Part shown: positions 9,357 through 24,825 of the stretch, piece by piece
Layout: each line of letters starts with the position of its first letter
Position numbering within the stretch: position 1 is the stretch's first letter
Source of the DNA: Bacteriovoracia bacterium
GTDB taxonomy: Bacteria > Bdellovibrionota > UBA1018 > CAIPTA01
NCBI GenBank assembly: GCA_050246755.1
Contig: JBFWVL010000001.1
Coordinates: forward strand, 544,001-608,000
Direction: 5' to 3'
DNA: 64,000 nucleotides
Translations under genes and position numbers: made by a program
Notes under the pieces: generated by a model
Told to the model about the DNA's origin: nothing
What the model saw: only the letters and a program-made list of their open reading frames with translations
Database searches by the model: none

Positions 9357-10865
9357 ATGGGAATTTTATTACTGCTATTACTGAGCCCAACGGTTTTCGC
9401 CCAGCCCGATTGCATAGACTGTGACCGCCGGCCGGCGCTGCAGGAACCGGTGGTAAGCCTCGGGCGAACGATCGCGGAAAAAGTGGACCCGGGCTTCTGC
9501 GAGGAACAGATCCGAATGGCGGCGCGGAACGATATCGAAGCCCTGCAGTCGGCCGTGAAAGAACTGAATACCACGCTGAAAGTATATGCCGAAGCCAGTC
9601 CGCTCCTCGAAGCCGCTTACAAAAAATTCGAAAACCTTCCCTCTTCCGGGAATCTCAACTGCGGCCAGGTGGAAGACGTGCGCTTCGCCGGCGATGCGCT
9701 TCGTTACCGCCATACGCAAGCGCAAAAATCGATCGATTTCTACGTGGACTACGCCAAGGCGGTAGCGGAAATTAAGGAGCCTTTTTCGATAAAAGAAATT
9801 ACCGAGAAGGCTCTCTGCATCCAGGCCTGCGTGCAGAAAAACGGCGGGTCCGACTCTAAACTCACCGCCGAGCATCCCTGCGCCGTGAGCTGCCGGGCGG
9901 GCGCAGACCTGCTCGCCGAAACTGGGTCGGCGGCGGTGAGCCGCGTGCTGCTGCAGCCCGCTTGCCTCCAACCCGAATACGGCACGATCAAACCCGGGGA
10001 AGCGCTTGCGCTCGCGAAACGCCTCAAAGAAGAAGAAAAGAAAAGTGTGCAGGCGCTGATGGAGGCCTGGCAAGAAAACCAAAAAGCGGTCGAGCGAGCC
10101 CAGGCTTTAACGAAGAAAAGATCTGAGGCCGTGGAAGCAGCCTTGCAGAAAATCTCCGGGCGAGTATGCACTTTGGAAAAAATTCTGCCGGCGCTCCAAG
10201 AAGCCACTTCGCTGGCGCGGGCGCCCGATACTATGTACCAAGGTACCGGTTTCCATTTTTCGGCGCAGGGAAAGCATTTCTTTGCCTCCGCCCAGCACGT
10301 TACGGGCAGCGGTGAGGACAAATACGACGAGGAGCTGCATTCCCTCGTAATCGACTATAATCCGGAGCTTCACTTTTTTCCTCGCGCCGTGGAGCGCTTT
10401 GATTTCGCCGCGGATGCAGTAATTAAGGAAATCAAATCCACGAAGGCGCCCCTTCGCCTAGTGGACGCCAAAAAGAAGCCCGCGCCGGGCCAGAACTTCT
10501 ATCTCGCGGGCTTCCCCGGAATCCGCGGCAGCAAGTTTTCCACTTTTCGCTGCCGCTTTTTAGGTTACGGGGAAAATGTCAGAGGGGGCAGCGCTTACCT
10601 CCTCCACTGCCCCGCGGATGGATTTCTCGACGGCCTCTCCGGGGGCCCAGCGGTGGATGAAGAGGGAAGGGTTTGGGGAATCGTTTCAAACCACGCGGAA
10701 CGAGCCGACGTGGTTTCCGTGGCTCCCCTTGCGGAAGGGCCCGGCGGGAAGCCCGTGATTGGAATCCAGGGAACCTTTCTCTCGGATCTCTGCTACGGTT
10801 CCATCAAGGAGCTCGATCCGCCGCACCGCTGCCAGATCTTTCCCGGTTCCCGCGAGCAATATTAG
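9357..10865 (+). CDS. Secreted protein: Cys-rich helical N-terminus plus C-terminal trypsin-like serine peptidase domain
   Basis: Signal peptide; GTGF...ASAQHV, ADAV and DGLSGGP catalytic-triad motifs. Confidence 0.75.
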   Translation: MGILLLLLLSPTVFAQPDCIDCDRRPALQEPVVSLGRTIAEKVDPGFCEEQIRMAARNDIEALQSAVKELNTTLKVYAEASPLLEAAYKKFENLPSSGNLNCGQVEDVRFAGDALRYRHTQAQKSIDFYVDYAKAVAEIKEPFSIKEITEKALCIQACVQKNGGSDSKLTAEHPCAVSCRAGADLLAETGSAAVSRVLLQPACLQPEYGTIKPGEALALAKRLKEEEKKSVQALMEAWQENQKAVERAQALTKKRSEAVEAALQKISGRVCTLEKILPALQEATSLARAPDTMYQGTGFHFSAQGKHFFASAQHVTGSGEDKYDEELHSLVIDYNPELHFFPRAVERFDFAADAVIKEIKSTKAPLRLVDAKKKPAPGQNFYLAGFPGIRGSKFSTFRCRFLGYGENVRGGSAYLLHCPADGFLDGLSGGPAVDEEGRVWGIVSNHAERADVVSVAPLAEGPGGKPVIGIQGTFLSDLCYGSIKELDPPHRCQIFPGSREQY

Positions 10866-10882
10866 CCGTCCGGAAACCGAAC

Positions 10883-10906
10883 GAAATTTGCGGCGCCGCA
10901 AATTTC
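10883..10906. repeat. Perfect 24-bp palindrome, copy 1 (intergenic between convergent genes)
   Basis: GAAATTTGCGGCGCCGCAAATTTC; identical to 22886-22909. Confidence 0.95.
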
Positions 10907-10910
10907 TGCT

Positions 10911-11609
10911 CTACTCGATCTCGTAGTCTACGGCTACGTTCGAGGTAACCGAAATCTCTCCCGCCGAAACCACCGTGGCGTCCGCCACCGAAGACCTTGC
11001 CATCTTCTGCATCTCCATCATCGGCCGGTAGGGCTGGTAGTTCACGGAGCTGTCCGAAATTCTTAGCACGCCCCGGATCGGCTTCTTGGCGAAGCGGGCG
11101 AGGGCTTCCCCGCGGGCCTGGGCATTCTTCATCGCGAGCTCGAGCGCCTGCACTTCCACTTCCTTGCGTTTTTCGGTATCGAACGTGAGGCCCTGGAGCT
11201 GCACCGAAACATCTTCCGTGCCCTTCCCCACTAGACCATCGAGCATATCGCCGAGCTTCTCAAGCTTGCGATAGGTGATGGCGAGGCCGTGGTCCACGGT
11301 ATAGCCGAGAAAATTCTGCCTATTGTTCTCGTAGGAGTACTCGGGATTCACGCGAAAACCGGAGGTTTGAATGTCCTTGGCATCGATTTTCAGCTCGCTT
11401 TTCAGCAGCTCCATCACGCGCGCCATTTCCTTGGCGTTCTTCGCTTGCGCGGCCTTTGCGTCGCGGGCCTTGGTATGAACCTGCAGCTGAACGTTCACGA
11501 GGTCGGGTTTCACTTTGATTTCACCCTCCCCCCTCACCGAAACGTAGTGAAAGTTCTCGGCGGCAAAAGTGGTGGAAGAAAGAAGCACAAGAAATAGAAA
11601 TTTGTTCAT
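10911..11609 (-). CDS. SIMPL (DUF541/YggE-like) periplasmic protein
   Basis: Signal peptide from MNKFLFL; VSVRGEGEIKVKPD, DIQTSGFRVNPEY and AGEISVTSNVAVDYEI motifs. Confidence 0.9.
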   Translation of the reverse strand: MNKFLFLVLLSSTTFAAENFHYVSVRGEGEIKVKPDLVNVQLQVHTKARDAKAAQAKNAKEMARVMELLKSELKIDAKDIQTSGFRVNPEYSYENNRQNFLGYTVDHGLAITYRKLEKLGDMLDGLVGKGTEDVSVQLQGLTFDTEKRKEVEVQALELAMKNAQARGEALARFAKKPIRGVLRISDSSVNYQPYRPMMEMQKMARSSVADATVVSAGEISVTSNVAVDYEIE

Positions 11610-11871
11610 GCCTAAATAGCAACAGAGACGCGGCGCGATCGTCAAGAGAGCCGAGGAAAAGGGATCGCACAAGTGGTGCGGAAATTAATAGGAGGAGCGA
11701 AGGCGGGCGGGAGCACGGCGCTTCAACGCCCTACGGGCCATGTTGGCTCGGGCGATCATCACCAGGGCACAGGCAAAAGTTTCGACTACGATGGAAAATC
11801 CACGTTGCATGGGTGGGTTAATATCTCTAAACCCCATATACCGTCAACTGGCAATTGCGTCTTAGCGAAGC

Positions 11872-17985: not shown

Positions 17986-20385
17986 ATGCACATTTTAATT
18001 TTTCTCCTGCTCTCTTTTTCCGCCTCCGCCGGCACGCGCCCCCCCATCCCGCGCGCGTCGCTGGTGGCCCCGATCATCGTGGACGGCCAGTCGCGAGAGC
18101 AAGCCTGGGTATTTCCCAGCACCGACGAAGAACAATTTTTGGTGGAAGCCTCTCCTCTCCTTCTTTCCCTTGGGCCCGAGCTAGTGCCGGCCCGTCTAGA
18201 ATCAATCCGCGCAAAAATCGAATCGGCCGGAGTGATCCGGCTCAAGCGGCTGCGCGACGTGGGCCTTTCGCCCCGCTTCGATCCGCTAACCCTCGAGCTG
18301 GCGATTCAGGTTCCGCCCCAAGCCAAACGCATCCTTACCAAAAATATCGTGGCCCGCGAGGAATCGATTTCGGGAAATACCTATCGCTCCTCCCCCGCGA
18401 GCGCCTACGTGAATCTTCGCACCAGCCAGCCGTTTCAGTATCCGGCCACTGGCCGCAGCTCGCGCCTTCCTTTCGGCGCCACCTTCGATTTTGCGGGAAA
18501 TATTCAGTCGTGGGTCCTGGATTCCGGCGCCACCTATACCGAACGTGATCCCGCACCCTGGAAGCGAAACGATACCGCCCTCATCAAAGACTCCGAAGAA
18601 AAAATGCTTCGCTTCACCGCAGGCGACCAGGTGACTCCGTCCGTAGCCTACCTATCGGGGAAAAATATCGGCGGGATCGGGATCACCCGGGTATTTGCGA
18701 TTCAGCCCAATACCACCACGCAGCCGATTTCTCGTACGGAGCTTCTGCTGAAGCGCCCAAGCCAGGTGGAAGTGATCGTGAACGGCACCGTGCAAAATCA
18801 GCTTCGTTTGCCGGCCGGGCCCGTGAACGTACAAGACTTCCCCCTCGCCAGCGGGTTCAATAATGTGGCCCTTAAAATCACCGACGATCTCGGCAAAGTG
18901 GAAATCGTGAACCTCACTATTTTCTACGATTCCCAGGCCCTGGGAAAAGGCGTGCAATCTTTTTCCTATCACGTGGGGGCGCCCTCCACTCCGCTCGGCG
19001 CCGGCCGCCACTACGAAGGAAAAAACATAAATTTTTCATTTTTTCACCGGAAAGGCCTCTCCGACCGCTTCACCGGCGGCCTATTCGCCCAGGGCGATGA
19101 GCACCAAAATCTGGTAGGCCTGGAGGGCATCCTCATCGGAAAATTCGGCTCCCTCAGCCTCACTCCGGCCGCGAGCCGCATCGCCGGCCTACGGCCCGAC
19201 CTCGCTGGCCGGCTCCGCTACCAAACGCTCGACGGGTACCGCGGCCAGCTTCACCCGCTGCGTTTCTCCCTCGAAAGCGAGTATAAGGGCTGGAGGTTCG
19301 CGCCGGTGGGCGTAACTGAGCCGAGCAATCCCTACGCCTGGTCGCTCGACGGCTATACTCTGTATCGATCCAATGCCGGCATCGATTTCGGCCTGGGAGG
19401 ACTCTATCAATTCCAGCGAGCCTCGCCGGTGGATCGCTGGCAAGGACGCTCCGACTTCACGGCGCTCCTCTCCAACTCCCTGCGCGCCTCGGTGAACTAT
19501 GCCTATACCCACGATGCCCACCGCGAACACCGCGTTTTTCTTTCCTTCACCTGGGTAGAACCGAGCGGCCGACAATACGTGAACGGCAGCTACGATTACC
19601 CCACAAAAACGGAGCGCCTAGATTTAGTGCGCACCGCTGGGCAGCCTTACGATGACGTTCAGCTCGCGGCCGGCCTGCAGCGATCTCCGGAACAAAACAG
19701 CGTGAGTGCCCAGGCCGACTACGTGGCCCAGCGGGCGAATTTCCGCCTAGACCACCAAAGCAATATGCCGCGCGAGCAAGGAAAAACGAACCATATCACC
19801 ACCGCCGGGTTCAGCACGGCTCTGGTTTGGGCCGGCTCCTCCGTTTCTCTATCGCGGCCGATCTACGATAGCTTCGCTATCTTCCCCACGCGAGGCGCGG
19901 CGCGGGGCGAGGAAATCCCCATTAATCCGCAGGGTGATTCTGCCGAAGCCTACGCGGGCGGCTGGCTTCCCGCCGTGGTTCCCGGGGTCAACTCCTACTA
20001 TCAAACTCCCGTCTCCCTTGATACCTCCCGCCTTCCGGCCGGCATAAGCGTGGCCGAAGAATATTTTCACGTGAAGCCCACCTACAAAAGCGGCGTCGAA
20101 GTAATGATCGGCGCCGAAGCCAGCGCCACGGCCATCGGAATTTTAACGGCCAAGGGAAAACCGCTCGCGCTAGCCTCGGGTGAAGTTTTCTCGTCGGAAG
20201 GAAAAGGCGGTTCGGTATTCTTCACGAATAAGCATGGCCAGTTCATCGCCGAGAATCTGCAGCCCGGCACCTACCGCCTGCATTTCTATGAGGGAAATTT
20301 CCGCGATCGCCAGTTTAGCGTTCCGGAAGGCGCCCGTGGTATCGTGCGCTTAGGCAAGCTTCCCGTGGAAGGTGGAGACGAATGA
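17986..20385 (+). CDS. Outer-membrane usher protein
   Basis: About 800 aa; PSQVEVIVNG...LPAGP, LGKGVQSFSY, LSRPIYDSFA and a C-terminal FTNKHGQF domain. Confidence 0.9.
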   Translation: MHILIFLLLSFSASAGTRPPIPRASLVAPIIVDGQSREQAWVFPSTDEEQFLVEASPLLLSLGPELVPARLESIRAKIESAGVIRLKRLRDVGLSPRFDPLTLELAIQVPPQAKRILTKNIVAREESISGNTYRSSPASAYVNLRTSQPFQYPATGRSSRLPFGATFDFAGNIQSWVLDSGATYTERDPAPWKRNDTALIKDSEEKMLRFTAGDQVTPSVAYLSGKNIGGIGITRVFAIQPNTTTQPISRTELLLKRPSQVEVIVNGTVQNQLRLPAGPVNVQDFPLASGFNNVALKITDDLGKVEIVNLTIFYDSQALGKGVQSFSYHVGAPSTPLGAGRHYEGKNINFSFFHRKGLSDRFTGGLFAQGDEHQNLVGLEGILIGKFGSLSLTPAASRIAGLRPDLAGRLRYQTLDGYRGQLHPLRFSLESEYKGWRFAPVGVTEPSNPYAWSLDGYTLYRSNAGIDFGLGGLYQFQRASPVDRWQGRSDFTALLSNSLRASVNYAYTHDAHREHRVFLSFTWVEPSGRQYVNGSYDYPTKTERLDLVRTAGQPYDDVQLAAGLQRSPEQNSVSAQADYVAQRANFRLDHQSNMPREQGKTNHITTAGFSTALVWAGSSVSLSRPIYDSFAIFPTRGAARGEEIPINPQGDSAEAYAGGWLPAVVPGVNSYYQTPVSLDTSRLPAGISVAEEYFHVKPTYKSGVEVMIGAEASATAIGILTAKGKPLALASGEVFSSEGKGGSVFFTNKHGQFIAENLQPGTYRLHFYEGNFRDRQFSVPEGARGIVRLGKLPVEGGDE

Positions 20386-21287
20386 TACTTTTACTGTTAA
20401 TCCTGGCGAAACTCTCGTGGGCCGGCTGCAATAACTTACGCCTGACCCTGGCGAACTCCACCGTGGACCTAACGCCGAATACGGCCCCTTCGCTCAATCT
20501 CACTGTGAAGCGAAGCGGCAGCGGGGGCTGCGATTATTTCATCACCTTCGGCTACGGCAATGCGTCCACCTATGCCGACCGCAAGCTCTCTCAGGGAAGC
20601 TATTCCATTCCCGTGAATATCTACCGCGACAGCAACCATACCCAGATCCTGAAAAAACTTCCCGAAGCAGCGACCGTCACCGACGTGATCTACGGATCCT
20701 TTCCCAGCGGAACGAGCAATCCCAACTCTACCGTGCATACCTACTATCCCCAGCTCGGAACCGTCGCCTACAACCGCTTCGGCGAATATTCGGATACCTA
20801 TACGGTGAGTGTGTACGAATATACGGGAGGCCTATCGGGATCCCTGGAAGACTCGGAGAATCTAAAACTTAAGTACACCATGACGAAAAAGATCGATCTT
20901 TCGCTGATGGCCACGGGCGCGCCCTTTAACGTGGCCGATACCACCGAAACGATGAACTTCGGGACCCTCACGGCGGGCGCGGTACGTACCTTCGATATCG
21001 GAGTGAAATATAATGCCGGTTACCGCGTGCGCCTCTCGTCGGCAAACCAAGGGCGGCTCAAGCATGCTTCCCTCACCGATACGGTTCCTTATACTCTGCA
21101 GGTAAATTCCTCGGCAGTGAACCTCAACGGCAGCAATACTACGCCCATACAAGTTTCCACGGGCACCGGCGTGAGCCCCCCGAATGGCTTGGTCCTTACG
21201 TCTTCTGTCACCATTGGCGCGCTCGGCTCGGCGAGAGCGGGCACCTATTCTGATACGGTAACCGTTACGGTCGTGACCACGGAATAA
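20382..21287 (+). CDS. Two-domain pilus tip adhesin (CsuE/SCPU-like)
   Basis: Signal peptide; N-domain with two Cys ending GEYSDTYTV; pilin domain ending AGTYSDTVTVTVV. Confidence 0.8.
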   Translation: MILLLLILAKLSWAGCNNLRLTLANSTVDLTPNTAPSLNLTVKRSGSGGCDYFITFGYGNASTYADRKLSQGSYSIPVNIYRDSNHTQILKKLPEAATVTDVIYGSFPSGTSNPNSTVHTYYPQLGTVAYNRFGEYSDTYTVSVYEYTGGLSGSLEDSENLKLKYTMTKKIDLSLMATGAPFNVADTTETMNFGTLTAGAVRTFDIGVKYNAGYRVRLSSANQGRLKHASLTDTVPYTLQVNSSAVNLNGSNTTPIQVSTGTGVSPPNGLVLTSSVTIGALGSARAGTYSDTVTVTVVTTE

Positions 21288-21324
21288 TTTGTGGGGCGGC
21301 ATTTCCCCGTGCTTTACTAGATAG

Positions 21325-22203
21325 ATGAAAATCATTTTCTTGTGCTTGCTCCTCCCCCTCACTACCTTCGCCGAAACCAACCGTAACTACGCGGGCGTGA
21401 AAACTTTTTTGGCGCAGCTGGCTGCCAAATACCCCACCGCGGCTCTGCCCTTCGTTCTGGGCGACTCCGACTCCGGCGAAAAAATTCAGGGATTGAAAAT
21501 CGGCAATGGCCCCGTGCGCACCTTAGTGGTGGGCACCCATCACGGCAACGAATACGGTTCCACGGAAGTGGCGCTCGCCTTCGCACAATCAATCGCTGCG
21601 AATCCCATCTCTGGCCAAACCACCTTCGTGATCCCCGTACTGAATATCGGTGGCTATAATAAGCGCGACCGTTACGAGGGGGCCTCCACCGGCCGCCGCA
21701 TGGACCCGAACCGGGACTATCCCGGCCCGTGCGGTACTGAAGGACCCTTTTCGCTAAAATCCACCCGGGCCCTCGCCGATTTCGTGGCCAAAGAAAAAAT
21801 CGTGAGCTCCGCTACTCTCCATACCCACTATCCCGCCGTGGTTTTCCCCTGGGGAATTTCCTCCCACGATCTTGCCACGCCCTATGGCGATATTTTCCAG
21901 CAGTTGGTGGAGGCCGCTACGCTCGAGAGCCGCTATCAAATCGGTAACTCCACGGAAGTGATGTATCCGGCCGACGGAACGTTCGAGGATTACGCTTACT
22001 GGAAACATGGAATTTGGTCGATTTTATTCGAGCTCGGCTTTTCCCATTCGCCTTCCGAGCAGGAAATTCAAAACATGATCAGCGTGAACGTGCCTGGCAT
22101 CCGCCGCATGCTCGTGAAAGCTCCGACCACGCTAGCGCGGAATCATGCCTTTACGGGCGCGTGCGATAGTACGCTGCGTGGCCTAGATCGGCACGACGAG
22201 TAG
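21325..22203 (+). CDS. M14 family zinc carboxypeptidase
   Basis: HGNE, DPNRDY, TLHTH and FELG motifs; signal peptide. Confidence 0.88.
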   Translation: MKIIFLCLLLPLTTFAETNRNYAGVKTFLAQLAAKYPTAALPFVLGDSDSGEKIQGLKIGNGPVRTLVVGTHHGNEYGSTEVALAFAQSIAANPISGQTTFVIPVLNIGGYNKRDRYEGASTGRRMDPNRDYPGPCGTEGPFSLKSTRALADFVAKEKIVSSATLHTHYPAVVFPWGISSHDLATPYGDIFQQLVEAATLESRYQIGNSTEVMYPADGTFEDYAYWKHGIWSILFELGFSHSPSEQEIQNMISVNVPGIRRMLVKAPTTLARNHAFTGACDSTLRGLDRHDE

Positions 22204-22218
22204 TCCGGATTCCGGACT
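22202..22218. repeat. Inverted repeat upstream of the HNH gene
   Basis: AGTCCGGA-T-TCCGGACT; near-copy GTCCGGAAACCGAAC at 10868-10882. Confidence 0.7.
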
Positions 22219-22292
22219 TCGATCCGGCTTCCCGGGGATCTTTGCTTAGTTAGCCTCCCACGCTGTGGCGTGCGCTTTGATTGCTGGCCGGG

Positions 22293-23129
22293 ATGAAACT
22301 CACACAGCTATCCGATGAAAAACTTGCGCATGAAACGGAACGCCTCGCTCACCAAGAGCGCGAGCTCCTAGTTGAAATTCTTTGGCATCTGCAGGAAATA
22401 GACCGGCGACGCCTCTATTCCTCTTTAGGCTATAAATCCCTCTTCGACTACGCCGTTAAAAAGCTCCGCTACGCCCAAGATCAGGCTTACCGGAGAATAT
22501 CCGCGGCGAGACTAATGAGGGAAATTCCCGAAATTGAGCCTAAGATTCATTCGGGCACTCTGACCTTAACCCATATCGGAATGGCCAAGATCGTGTTCAA
22601 AAGGGAAAAATTCTCTCTTGAGGAAAAAGCCGCTCTCCTTAAAAAACTAGAAAATACTTCTACGCGGGAAGCGGCAAAAATTCTTGCCGCTATTTCACCA
22701 GAAGCCCTAAAGCCCGACGCCATTCGCCCCTTGGCGGCCGACCGAGTGGAAATGCGTTTTGTCGCCAACGAGAGCCTTCTCGAGAAAATCGAAAAATTGA
22801 AAGGATTGTTCGCTCATCGCTACCCACACCTGAGCCTTGGCGAGCTATTTGAGGTTCTCTGCGATCAAGTGATCGAAAATCAGACGAAATTTGCGGCGCC
22901 GCAAATTTCAAAACGCCAAAGCGTGGCGGCGAGAAGAAGGGCGGTGCTTGCCCGCGGGCGTTGCGAAAAGTGCGATTCCCGCCACGCCCTCGAGGTGGAT
23001 CACCGCGTGCCGAAAGCCTTAGGGGGTAAGGATACGATAGAAAATCTACGTCTCCTTTGCCGCTCCTGCAACCAACGTGCGGCGATAGAGATTTTCGGCA
23101 TCGACAAGATGGAAAAATACCTAACTTAG
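22293..23129 (+). CDS. HNH endonuclease with long helical N-terminal domain (DUF222-like architecture)
   Basis: C-terminal CEKC...LEVDHRVPKALGGKDTIENLRLLCRSCN; N-terminal HLQEIDRRRLY...GYKSLFDY...AYRRI. Overlaps the convergent ade stop by 4 bp. Confidence 0.9.
   Translation: MKLTQLSDEKLAHETERLAHQERELLVEILWHLQEIDRRRLYSSLGYKSLFDYAVKKLRYAQDQAYRRISAARLMREIPEIEPKIHSGTLTLTHIGMAKIVFKREKFSLEEKAALLKKLENTSTREAAKILAAISPEALKPDAIRPLAADRVEMRFVANESLLEKIEKLKGLFAHRYPHLSLGELFEVLCDQVIENQTKFAAPQISKRQSVAARRRAVLARGRCEKCDSRHALEVDHRVPKALGGKDTIENLRLLCRSCNQRAAIEIFGIDKMEKYLT
22886..22909. repeat. Perfect 24-bp palindrome, copy 2 (inside the HNH coding linker, encodes KFAAPQI)
   Basis: GAAATTTGCGGCGCCGCAAATTTC; 26 bp identical to 10881-10906 including the preceding AC. 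Confidence 0.95.
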
Positions 23130-24793
23130 CCGGCCCTTACGTCGATCACCTTAAACTGATTCACGTCCACCAAGCCTTTATCCGTGAGCTTTAAGGAAGG
23201 AATCACGGGTAAACTGAGGAAAGCCAGCTGCAGAAAGGGCTCGGGCAGCTCACAACCGATCGAGCGGCTCGCTGCCTGCAAATCGAGCAAAGATTTTTCT
23301 ATTTTCTTCGGGCTCTCATTCGACATCAAACCGCCGAACGGTAGCGAAAGCTGCGACTGCACGGCTCCGTCTTTCACCACGCAAAAACCGCCGCCGCTCT
23401 CGATGAGCGCCTTCAGCGCAGCACGCATGTCGGAAGTTTTTTCGCCCACCACGATGAGGTTGTGGCTATCGTGGCCCACGCTCGAGGCGATGGCGCCCCG
23501 GAGTTTCCCAAAGCCCTTTACGTAACCGTTCGCGGGTTTCGATCCGTGGCCATACCGTTCGAGTACCGAGAGTCGCGACACACCAGAATCCGCGCTGTTC
23601 ATAACGAGATGATCCGTAAGGATGCGGCCGTGCTTCACGCCGATCACGTGCACCGGGCCGCTAGGGCCTTCGAGGGAAGCCTCGGTGGGCGCGCCGGCGC
23701 GCACCGTGTTCTGGAATCCACGCGCTGGCGAAGAAGAAGCCGCCAAATCCTCCACCCGGATTCCAGACTTCCATACCTGCGCCACCGTGCACTTGCGCGC
23801 ATCATCGAGCAGCACCAAATCCGCCCGGTACCCCGGGGCAATCGCGCCTAGCCGTCGGATTCCGTAGTGCCGGGCCACGCTCCAGGACGCCGCCCGGTAG
23901 GCGATCTCCGGCTGCACGCCGTATTTAATCGCGCCGCGAATCAGGTGATCGATGTGTCCCTCTTTGGCGATGTCGAGTGGATTTCGGTCATCCGTGCAAA
24001 ACCCCATGCTCGTAGAGGTAGCCAAATTCAGTAAAGGCGAAAGCTCCTCGAGGTCTTTGGCCACGCTGCCCTCGCGAATCCAGCAGGCGATCCCCTTGCG
24101 CATTTTTTCCGCGGCCTCGCGGGCGCCCGAGCTCTCGTGGCAGCTGGAAATCCCTGCGGCGGCATACGCCGAAAGCTCCTTACCGGTAAGCAAAGGACAG
24201 TGCCCGTCGATATGATGGTCCTGAAACGCCTCGAGCTTGTCCCACACGATCGGATCCCCGTGCAAAACGCCGGGCACGTTCATCATCTCGGCGAGCCCGA
24301 GGGCCTTAGGGTGCCTCGCCAAACCCAATAGCTGACCGGCCAAAACCTCTCCGCCGCCATTCGTTTCCATATGCGTAGCCGGCACGCAGGAACTGAGCAT
24401 CACGCGCATATCGAGCGCCATACCCTCGGCGGCTTCGAGAAAATATTTCAGGCCGTCCACGCCGATCACGTTCGTGATCTCGTGGGGATCGCAGACCGCG
24501 GTGGTAGTACCACGGGAGAGAACCACGTCCTGAAAATTCCCGGGAATCATCAAGGAACTTTCCACGTGCACGTGGGCATCGATGAAGCCGGGCACGAGCT
24601 TCCTACGCCGCCCCTGATACACCCGCCGCGCCTTCAACCCGGGTTCCACGCCCACGATCATGCCTTCGTGGATTGCAACGTCGCCGAAAACCCAACGGCA
24701 AGAGAAAACGTCGAAGTAGCGCACGTTCTTGATGAGAAGATCACAGGGAATTTTGCCGAGGGCGGCGTCTACGGTGGAGCGAGAGAGTTTCAT
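23126..24793 (-). CDS. ade: Adenine deaminase
   Basis: PGFIDAHVHVESS, DPHEI, GLAEMMN, DGHCP, CTDDR and GHDSHNL motifs. Confidence 0.93.
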   Translation of the reverse strand: MKLSRSTVDAALGKIPCDLLIKNVRYFDVFSCRWVFGDVAIHEGMIVGVEPGLKARRVYQGRRRKLVPGFIDAHVHVESSLMIPGNFQDVVLSRGTTTAVCDPHEITNVIGVDGLKYFLEAAEGMALDMRVMLSSCVPATHMETNGGGEVLAGQLLGLARHPKALGLAEMMNVPGVLHGDPIVWDKLEAFQDHHIDGHCPLLTGKELSAYAAAGISSCHESSGAREAAEKMRKGIACWIREGSVAKDLEELSPLLNLATSTSMGFCTDDRNPLDIAKEGHIDHLIRGAIKYGVQPEIAYRAASWSVARHYGIRRLGAIAPGYRADLVLLDDARKCTVAQVWKSGIRVEDLAASSSPARGFQNTVRAGAPTEASLEGPSGPVHVIGVKHGRILTDHLVMNSADSGVSRLSVLERYGHGSKPANGYVKGFGKLRGAIASSVGHDSHNLIVVGEKTSDMRAALKALIESGGGFCVVKDGAVQSQLSLPFGGLMSNESPKKIEKSLLDLQAASRSIGCELPEPFLQLAFLSLPVIPSLKLTDKGLVDVNQFKVIDVRAG

Positions 24794-24825
24794 CCGCTAA
24801 GCGTAACGTAGAAAAGAAAACCGGG

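Follow-up and report, generated by a model that had tools for sequence, protein, structure and literature searches.

The DNA analysed here, a 64,000-nt window of a Bacteriovoracia bacterium genome (GCA_050246755.1, contig JBFWVL010000001.1, positions 544,001 to 608,000 of the forward strand), carries a gene for a DUF222-like/HNH nuclease that has a perfect palindrome within its reading frame. Unless a contig is named, coordinates are those of the window; the host genome (G000) is a 3.55-Mb assembly of 10 contigs, in which the window is C1:544001–608000. The nuclease gene (22293–23129, plus strand, 278 aa, from the open reading frame (ORF) call and Pfam) has an ATG start that its homologs share. 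It lies between an M14 carboxypeptidase gene upstream (21325–22203, plus strand; Pfam Peptidase_M14, E = 3.1e-20) and a convergent adenine deaminase gene (ade; 23126–24793, minus strand; Pfam Adenine_deam_C, E = 5.4e-55), with whose stop its own stop overlaps by 4 nt. Upstream of the M14 gene, two co-directional ORFs of 799 and 301 aa (17986–21287) begin with what resemble signal peptides and may encode an outer-membrane usher-type protein and a partner that is secreted. The GC content of the gene is 0.49–0.53, compared with 0.55–0.64 in the flanks. Both this arrangement and the relative AT-richness had been described in the original prediction, a reading of the DNA made without database searches, and the ORF positions and base composition agree with it.

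The protein consists of two parts. Pfam identifies an HNH domain (PF01844) at E = 1.9e-12 (47.6 bits, cut-off 21.4), and the same model is matched by all 13 aligned family members. The catalytic domain, with the pattern CxxC ... DH ... N ... CxxC-N, covers residues 224–262 (22962–23078, plus strand); C224, C227, H237, N251 and C256 are invariant in the family alignment, and the catalytic DH...N and the zinc ligands are intact in the window protein. The HNH profile matches the D/En region of group II intron maturases, McrA and the HNH domains of IscB and Cas9, and an NCBIfam IscB HNH model matches at 1e-8. The N-terminal helical domain (22293–22877, plus strand) is DUF222-like: DUF222 (PF02720) scores 16 bits at residues 15–130, below the curated cut-off of 24.4 (E = 0.008), 5 of the 13 aligned members match it at E ≤ 1, and the domain aligns with a DUF222 cluster at a TM score of 0.54–0.59 in a model-based Atlas structure search. 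A profile search with this part gave no match among solved structures. We presume it to be the DNA-recognition part. The ribbon-helix-helix segment that had been proposed for the protein was not supported, as RHH_1 was matched in just one of the 13 aligned members (E = 0.14). PADLOC returned weak HNH-domain matches alone for the gene (E about 1e-3) and assigned no defence system.

The linker between the two domains is encoded by P1 (GAAATTTGCGGCGCCGCAAATTTC, 22886–22909), a perfect 24-nt palindrome without a loop, which by direct reading lies in frame and encodes residues 198–206 (TKFAAPQIS). As single-stranded DNA it folds at −10.6 kcal/mol (z = −2.5). A dispersed copy (10883–10906) occupies the 45-nt gap between two convergent ORFs, one trypsin-like (9357–10865, plus strand) and one SIMPL (10911–11672, minus strand). 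The identity extends over a 26-mer (ACGAAATTTGCGGCGCCGCAAATTTC) at 10881–10906 and 22884–22909, so that the palindrome and its non-coding duplicate both stand as originally described. At up to 3 mismatches P1 has 2 matches in the window, and matches occurred in 0 of 100 window shuffles.

Each of these copies is accompanied by a second small hairpin, which we call hp2. At the dispersed copy it is GTTCGGTTTCCGGAC on the minus strand (10868–10882, direct reading), and hp2 and palindrome fold jointly at −12.9 kcal/mol. At the gene-borne copy it is degenerate (GTCTGATTTTCGATC, 22873–22885, minus strand; nhmmer and blastn) and lies in coding sequence, encoding ...IENQT. With a model built on six dispersed copies, nhmmer finds the gene-borne unit on the minus strand at 22910–22873 (E = 1.7e-8), with 35.3 bits against 26.0 for P1 alone, and the gene-borne element aligns with C3:145024–145058 over 35 nt at 91% (blastn). 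Because the nhmmer match spans the palindrome as well as the degenerate hp2, the window gene holds a whole, slightly decayed, two-hairpin unit. The second palindrome predicted upstream of the gene was also found; it is a solo hp2-type hairpin (GTCCGGATTCCGGAC, 22203–22217) directly 3′ of the M14 stop codon, whose final base doubles as the first G of the hairpin; the HNH start follows about 76 nt further on. The layout is the same at paralog 4 of the host genome (see below), where GTTCGGCTTTCGAAC directly follows the stop of the upstream gene. Beside the solo hp2 lies an imperfect palindrome (GATCCGGCTTCCCGGGGATC, 22221–22240; direct reading, partly flagged as a stem), which is possibly a decayed palindrome module.

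The host genome encodes six HNH paralogs, of which the five besides the window gene are 53, 39, 37, 34 and 31% identical to it (tblastn). Three of the six carry different palindromes at the same linker position (gene nt 592–626), and these three palindromes have 7, 5 and 1 matching extragenic copies, 13 in total. For the palindrome of the window gene (family 1), there are three exact copies (C1:337357, C1:554883 and the gene-borne C1:566886) and five diverged ones (C1:349791, C1:1178157, C1:1904970, C3:145022 and C3:53684); with seven extragenic copies, mostly in convergent gaps, this is not a two-copy case. In every extragenic copy of family 1, hp2 (GTTCGGnnnCCGGAC or GTTCGAnnnTCGAAC) follows after 0–1 nt. 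A further family-1 match, C2:338150, has 5 mismatches and was dropped as unrelated. Paralog 4 (C1:1680661–1681545) and paralog 5 (C1:70747–71682) have linker palindromes (TTTACCTCCGACGTCGGATGTAAA and TTACTTAGTGCGCACAAAGTAA, respectively) that are each one mismatch from perfect symmetry. The paralog-4 palindrome recurs outside genes at C1:349830, C3:23626 (perfect over 32 nt), C3:198257, C5:72028 and C6:122572, with an hp2-like hairpin 0–8 nt from the copies, and that of paralog 5 does so once, 3.4 kb away from its gene. The arms differ between types, for example ACTTC...GAAGT as against AAATTTGC...GCAAATTT. As the six linkers amount to a 450-nt target in 3.5 Mb, three independent chance matches are negligible.

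Paralog 2 (C1:1815073–1815861), the closest to the window gene, has the left arm and core alone (AAACTTGCGGCGCCG) and is equal in length to the window gene at that point; it lacks 15 N-domain residues and may be in decay. Where a pirin gene and a T2SSE gene converge, leaving a gap of 62 nt (C1:349791–349851), family-1 and family-4 palindromes flank one shared hp2. A generic hp2 regular expression was not enriched genome-wide (38 matches, compared with 56 in a reversed-genome control), and hp2 is therefore meaningful only beside palindromes and HNH genes. Long ORFs of the host also contain two perfect palindromes of similar length (C5:241824–241855, 32 nt, and C3:299681–299706, 26 nt), which have no relation to the HNH-linked families.

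Convergent gaps hold nine of the 13 extragenic copies (7 by a crude gene model and 2 by direct ORF reading), and such gaps make up 15.6% of intergenic bases in the crude model. The flanking genes are ordinary and mutually unrelated (PD40/TolB-like, pirin, T2SSE ATPase, response regulator, lipoate-protein ligase, TauE, AcrB, GNAT, trypsin-like peptidase and SIMPL). The family-1 and family-4 cores, which have 6 and 5 sites in the host, were found in 0 of the 40 relatives searched. For the ORF upstream of the copy at 10883, there was no same-genus ortholog at E ≤ 1e-30.

Outside the host genome the closest match reaches 45% identity, and within the genus 38%; the search of 40 other genomes yielded no ortholog above 56% identity. 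A 29.9-kb contig from another study, however, covers 20800–24800 without gaps at about 93% identity, which shows that a related strain keeps the gene at this locus. A second contig of the related-strain run carries the ortholog of the dispersed copy at C3:145022, and no joint skipping the HNH gene was found in the related-strain contigs. No empty M14-ade site was found in the same-genus genomes: M14 orthologs are present in 2 of the 5, where ade is not adjacent. The M14 neighbours differ in G004, and in G003 the contig ends at that locus.

Considering the family more broadly, matches were obtained in 29 of the 41 related genomes, with up to 38 per genome and many at contig ends. Its Atlas clusters come mostly from Bdellovibrionota and Myxococcota, and a locus search with the window protein gave one locus, in a Bdellovibrionales metagenome-assembled genome. 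Recent multiplication is seen in G005, with eight copies at 85–95% nucleotide identity, and in G030, with four copies at 87–91% protein identity. The repeated unit in these genomes comprises the gene and the preceding 200–230 nt or so, in which a TTGAC-type −35-like motif lies, and ends at the stop codon; alignments of the G005 and G030 copies showed no terminal inverted repeats. On this sequence evidence the HNH gene is itself a duplicating unit, as is the REP13E12 family. The DNA 3′ of the HNH stops in the G005 copies (L021–L030) falls into two or three recurring variants common to different copies, and the repeated units there may be longer and mosaic.

We collected 86 family members from about 20 genomes and analysed the 80 unique full-length ones for palindromes. 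In 35/80 homologs the strongest palindrome of the gene fell within the linker window (18% of gene length), and the linker accounted for 21 of 35 palindromes at scores of at least 7, 14 of 22 at scores of at least 8 and 10 of 11 at scores of at least 9. The sequences of these last 10 linker palindromes are all different. Compared with codon shuffles (200 per gene), the linker was more palindromic at p ≤ 0.05 in 23/80 homologs and at p ≤ 0.01 in 12/80, as against 5/80 and 1/80 for an N-domain control window of equal size. At least eight different palindromes occupy the same linker in diverged lineages; lineage-specific examples are CACTGCCGGCGCCGGCAGTG, ACTTCCGACGTCGGAAGT, ACTTCGCGCGCGCGAAGT, ACTCTTCCCGGGAAGAGT and ACTTCGCC(A/T)GGCGAAGT, and the linker of the G002 gene forms a 35-nt hairpin. 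In one G038 gene (L064, G038:C33:5800-8400), gene nt 796–879 consist of three tandem 33-nt linker repeats, each with AACTCCTGCGCAGAAGTT, and L058 has two copies 42 nt apart; from the tandem repeats of L064 it follows that the linker palindrome can expand by slippage.

Matching dispersed copies were also found in two other genomes. G034 has 18 sites of ACTTCGCCNGGCGAAGT and G030 has 11 sites of its own palindrome, with none in the control and none in four other genomes in either case. Of the G034 sites, 14 were examined: 5 are in HNH linkers, and 9 are without an HNH-family match within 1.5 kb (tblastn and the family hidden Markov model). A second palindrome type in this genome has five sites, none of them near HNH genes. 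One dispersed G034 copy (L130, G034:C91:7030-10046, at about 1440–1520) lies about 14 nt after a sequence that resembles a tRNA T-arm and 3′ end (GGTTCGATCCC...). In G030, three sites are at one HNH gene (at −100, in the linker and at the stop), two are at another (upstream and in the linker), one is in a truncated HNH copy and five are elsewhere. Within the DNA fetched, an upstream copy 100–291 nt before the start was present at 4 of the 21 linker-palindrome loci (in G038, G024, G030 and G014), and two of the four lie just 5′ of a TTGAC(A) −35-like motif. The truncated G030 copy (L148, C8:128958-131975) is about 88% identical to a full one (L146, C49:7771-10788) across the HNH half including the palindrome, and beyond the palindrome edge the two are unrelated. 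Since homology stops exactly at the palindrome, the palindrome is a rearrangement breakpoint.

Palindrome type is linked to HNH lineage. As had been anticipated, homologous linkers are palindromic with differing sequences, and the dispersed repeats match the genome's own HNH palindromes in the host (three paralogs), in G034 and in G030. The window gene belongs to a multi-copy, selfish-looking DUF222-like/HNH family of Bdellovibrionota, and the reading that we prefer, with a probability of roughly 0.45, is that every HNH lineage is paired with a palindromic site of its own, which it may bind or nick, in a manner resembling repetitive extragenic palindromes (REPs) and their REP-associated tyrosine transposases (RAYTs). 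The site would be placed in frame in the linker, and often also near the promoter or gene end; some genomes would carry it at a handful of positions between genes, or up to about a dozen, mainly in short convergent gaps. The variable N-domain would read the palindrome, binding duplex DNA as a dimer or recognising an extruded hairpin, and the HNH domain would nick or cut there. Repair of the break, with short-tract gene conversion, could then copy the site and homogenise it between loci, the palindrome would thereby become a breakpoint for the exchange or loss of gene halves, and a promoter-proximal copy could act as an operator for autorepression, as described for I-TevI. Copying and conversion of this kind would explain why the 24–26-mers are identical, why the gene holds a 35-nt tract that resembles a product of conversion, and why a breakpoint falls at the palindrome.

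Several observations weigh against this reading. A strong linker palindrome is a minority trait (14/80 homologs at a score of at least 8), and the expanded sub-families, with eight G005 copies and four G030 copies, lack it; as the most-multiplied sub-families have none, the gene does not need a palindrome in order to spread. G038 and G024 have their palindrome only in the linker and once upstream (259 or 218 nt), with no dispersal. Copy numbers are 18 or fewer, well short of what is known for REPs. As hp2 is common to two palindrome families, this part of the element does not follow the HNH paralog. The gene-borne hp2 is degenerate and the dispersed copies have a good hp2, so that the copy in the gene looks derived, by transfer from a dispersed element to the gene, rather than like a source. 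In addition, ACTTCGCCTGGCGAAGT occurs in frame near the C-terminus of an unrelated 487-aa ATP-grasp-like ORF in G034 (ORF 145–1608 of L125, G034:C15:9064-12080; palindrome at locus 1501–1517), where it encodes TSPGEV, the identical peptide to that of the HNH linkers. Of the HNH/REP-like mobile system put forward in the original prediction, the sequence-level expectations have held, the ribbon-helix-helix segment has not, and the gene copy does not look like the master.

A serious rival, which we nevertheless consider somewhat unlikely, is that the palindromes and hp2 are REP, miniature inverted-repeat transposable element (MITE) or Rickettsia palindromic element (RPE)-like mobile or convertible elements moved by another enzyme or by repair. 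The HNH linker would then be a tolerant, perhaps preferred, landing place, and the gene would carry the elements passively and spread them when duplicating, a role that we likewise regard as less probable than an active one. The complete unit with a decayed hp2 in the gene fits such hitch-hiking, as do the in-frame copy in the ATP-grasp-like ORF and the HNH sub-families that thrive without palindromes, and the lack of a length difference from paralog 2 fits a short conversion tract. Precedent exists in Rickettsia, whose protein-coding genes can accommodate palindromic repeats in frame (PMC10969869). The elements described here resemble RPEs and intragenic MITEs in this respect and differ from RPEs in being 17–40 nt long and tied to the linker of one family, RPEs being about 150 bp and found in unrelated genes; of the RPE hallmarks, many unrelated genes and a conserved peptide of about 50 aa, we found one unrelated in-frame copy, that in G034. 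Passive carriage has to explain at least eight palindromes at one linker and three families in one genome, which needs an extreme target preference, and it sits poorly with the G034 paralogs, which are 70–89% identical and all retain their own version of the palindrome. A candidate mover is present in the host as two Y1_Tnp-like ORFs (PF01797; C3:68489 and C1:164369), but neither has such palindromes within 700 nt, and a RAYT mobiliser is unlikely.

A mainly regulatory palindrome, serving as an autorepression operator, an in-gene roadblock or an mRNA hairpin with no HNH-driven spread, is unlikely, and we see as little reason to favour the corresponding view of the intergenic copies as terminators or RNA-stabilising hairpins. 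Upstream copies do stand beside promoter-like motifs in several genomes, and the homing endonuclease I-TevI binds an operator that resembles its homing site (PMC2988022). The likeness lies in a target-like sequence at the gene's own promoter, here the linker palindrome 100–291 nt upstream in four genomes; I-TevI differs in being a GIY-YIG enzyme encoded in an intron, with a target that is non-palindromic, outside the ORF and undispersed. The extragenic copies begin at stop codons or a few bases away, and with a loose consensus the palindrome and its T-rich tail are flagged as terminator-like, on the hp1-to-hp2 strand alone. Against a plain terminator, the tail is GTTCGGTTTC with no T-run after most copies, the element at C1:337357 is followed after 25 nt by a canonical terminator, Rfam gave no family at the dispersed copy, and in same-genus genomes no such elements follow the stops of the T2SSE and AcrB orthologs. 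Regulation would also leave unexplained the identical 24–26-mers at unrelated loci and the palindrome breakpoint. Finally, that the intergenic units of hp2 and palindrome are scars of former HNH insertions and deletions, with palindromes as recombination joints of the HNH or a host enzyme, is improbable: paralogs 1 and 4 do occupy what would otherwise be convergent gaps, each immediately behind an hp2 that adjoins the stop of the upstream gene, one G030 gene has the palindrome at −100, linker and stop, and the truncated copy ends at the palindrome, but two precise deletions per site would be required, no intermediate of hp2, palindrome and HNH half was seen in the host genome, and dispersed copies resemble the gene over no more than about 40 nt.

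Returning to the reading of a cognate site for each HNH lineage, two known systems are close to it. The DUF222-HNH genes of mycobacteria and other Actinobacteria (REP13E12, or the '13E12 repeat') share the helical N-domain with a C-terminal HNH and are multi-copy within genomes and patchy between relatives, as here with six paralogs and 29 of 41 genomes; the differences are the N-domain, at 16 bits against the DUF222 cut-off of 24.4, and the Bdellovibrionota host. REP13E12 loci are described as gene-conversion hotspots without a defined function (PMC13061034), and those of M. tuberculosis hold a putative prophage attachment site (PMC13061034; PMC10589994). In REP/REPIN-RAYT systems, each repeat type matches the copies beside one enzyme gene, and genomes with several RAYT genes have several repeat types (PMC2817692, PMC3116915). 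The lineage-specific, short, often convergent extragenic palindromes that match an enzyme gene in the host, G034 and G030 are alike in this. Unlike REP-RAYT, the enzyme here is an HNH nuclease rather than a Y1 HUH transposase, one copy of the site is inside its reading frame, the enzyme gene is itself multi-copy, and there are 2–18 sites per palindrome type rather than the tens to hundreds known for REPs. In the literature searched, no HNH gene family was described with an in-frame linker palindrome and matching dispersed copies, and the portions of the REP-RAYT literature surveyed do not mention HNH. The finding is a variant of enzyme-linked dispersed palindrome systems, with an HNH enzyme.

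A broader proposal, which we put forward tentatively and hold to be doubtful as it stands, is that DUF222-like/HNH genes and their palindromes form a self-propagating element class, an HNH counterpart of RAYT-REPIN. It is possible, with the same reservation, that the enzyme nicks its cognate hairpin or cruciform and that the break seeds copying of the site, in short tracts, into new gaps. Equally tentative is the suggestion that gene halves are exchanged modularly at the palindrome, the in-frame copy linking the site to the specificity of the enzyme.

DUF222-HNH genes are very common and multi-copy in several phyla. As a candidate target can be read from the gene itself, with each paralog naming its own substrate, the question of their function becomes directly testable. 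If the cognate-site reading is true, enzyme-linked dispersed palindromes, for which REP-RAYT is the paradigm, would gain a second enzyme class, the recombination hotspots at such genes would be explained, and nature would provide a panel of HNH nucleases that differ in palindromic specificity. If the HNH genes are indeed a counterpart of RAYT-REPIN, this would supply a mechanism for the unexplained gene families of the REP13E12 type.

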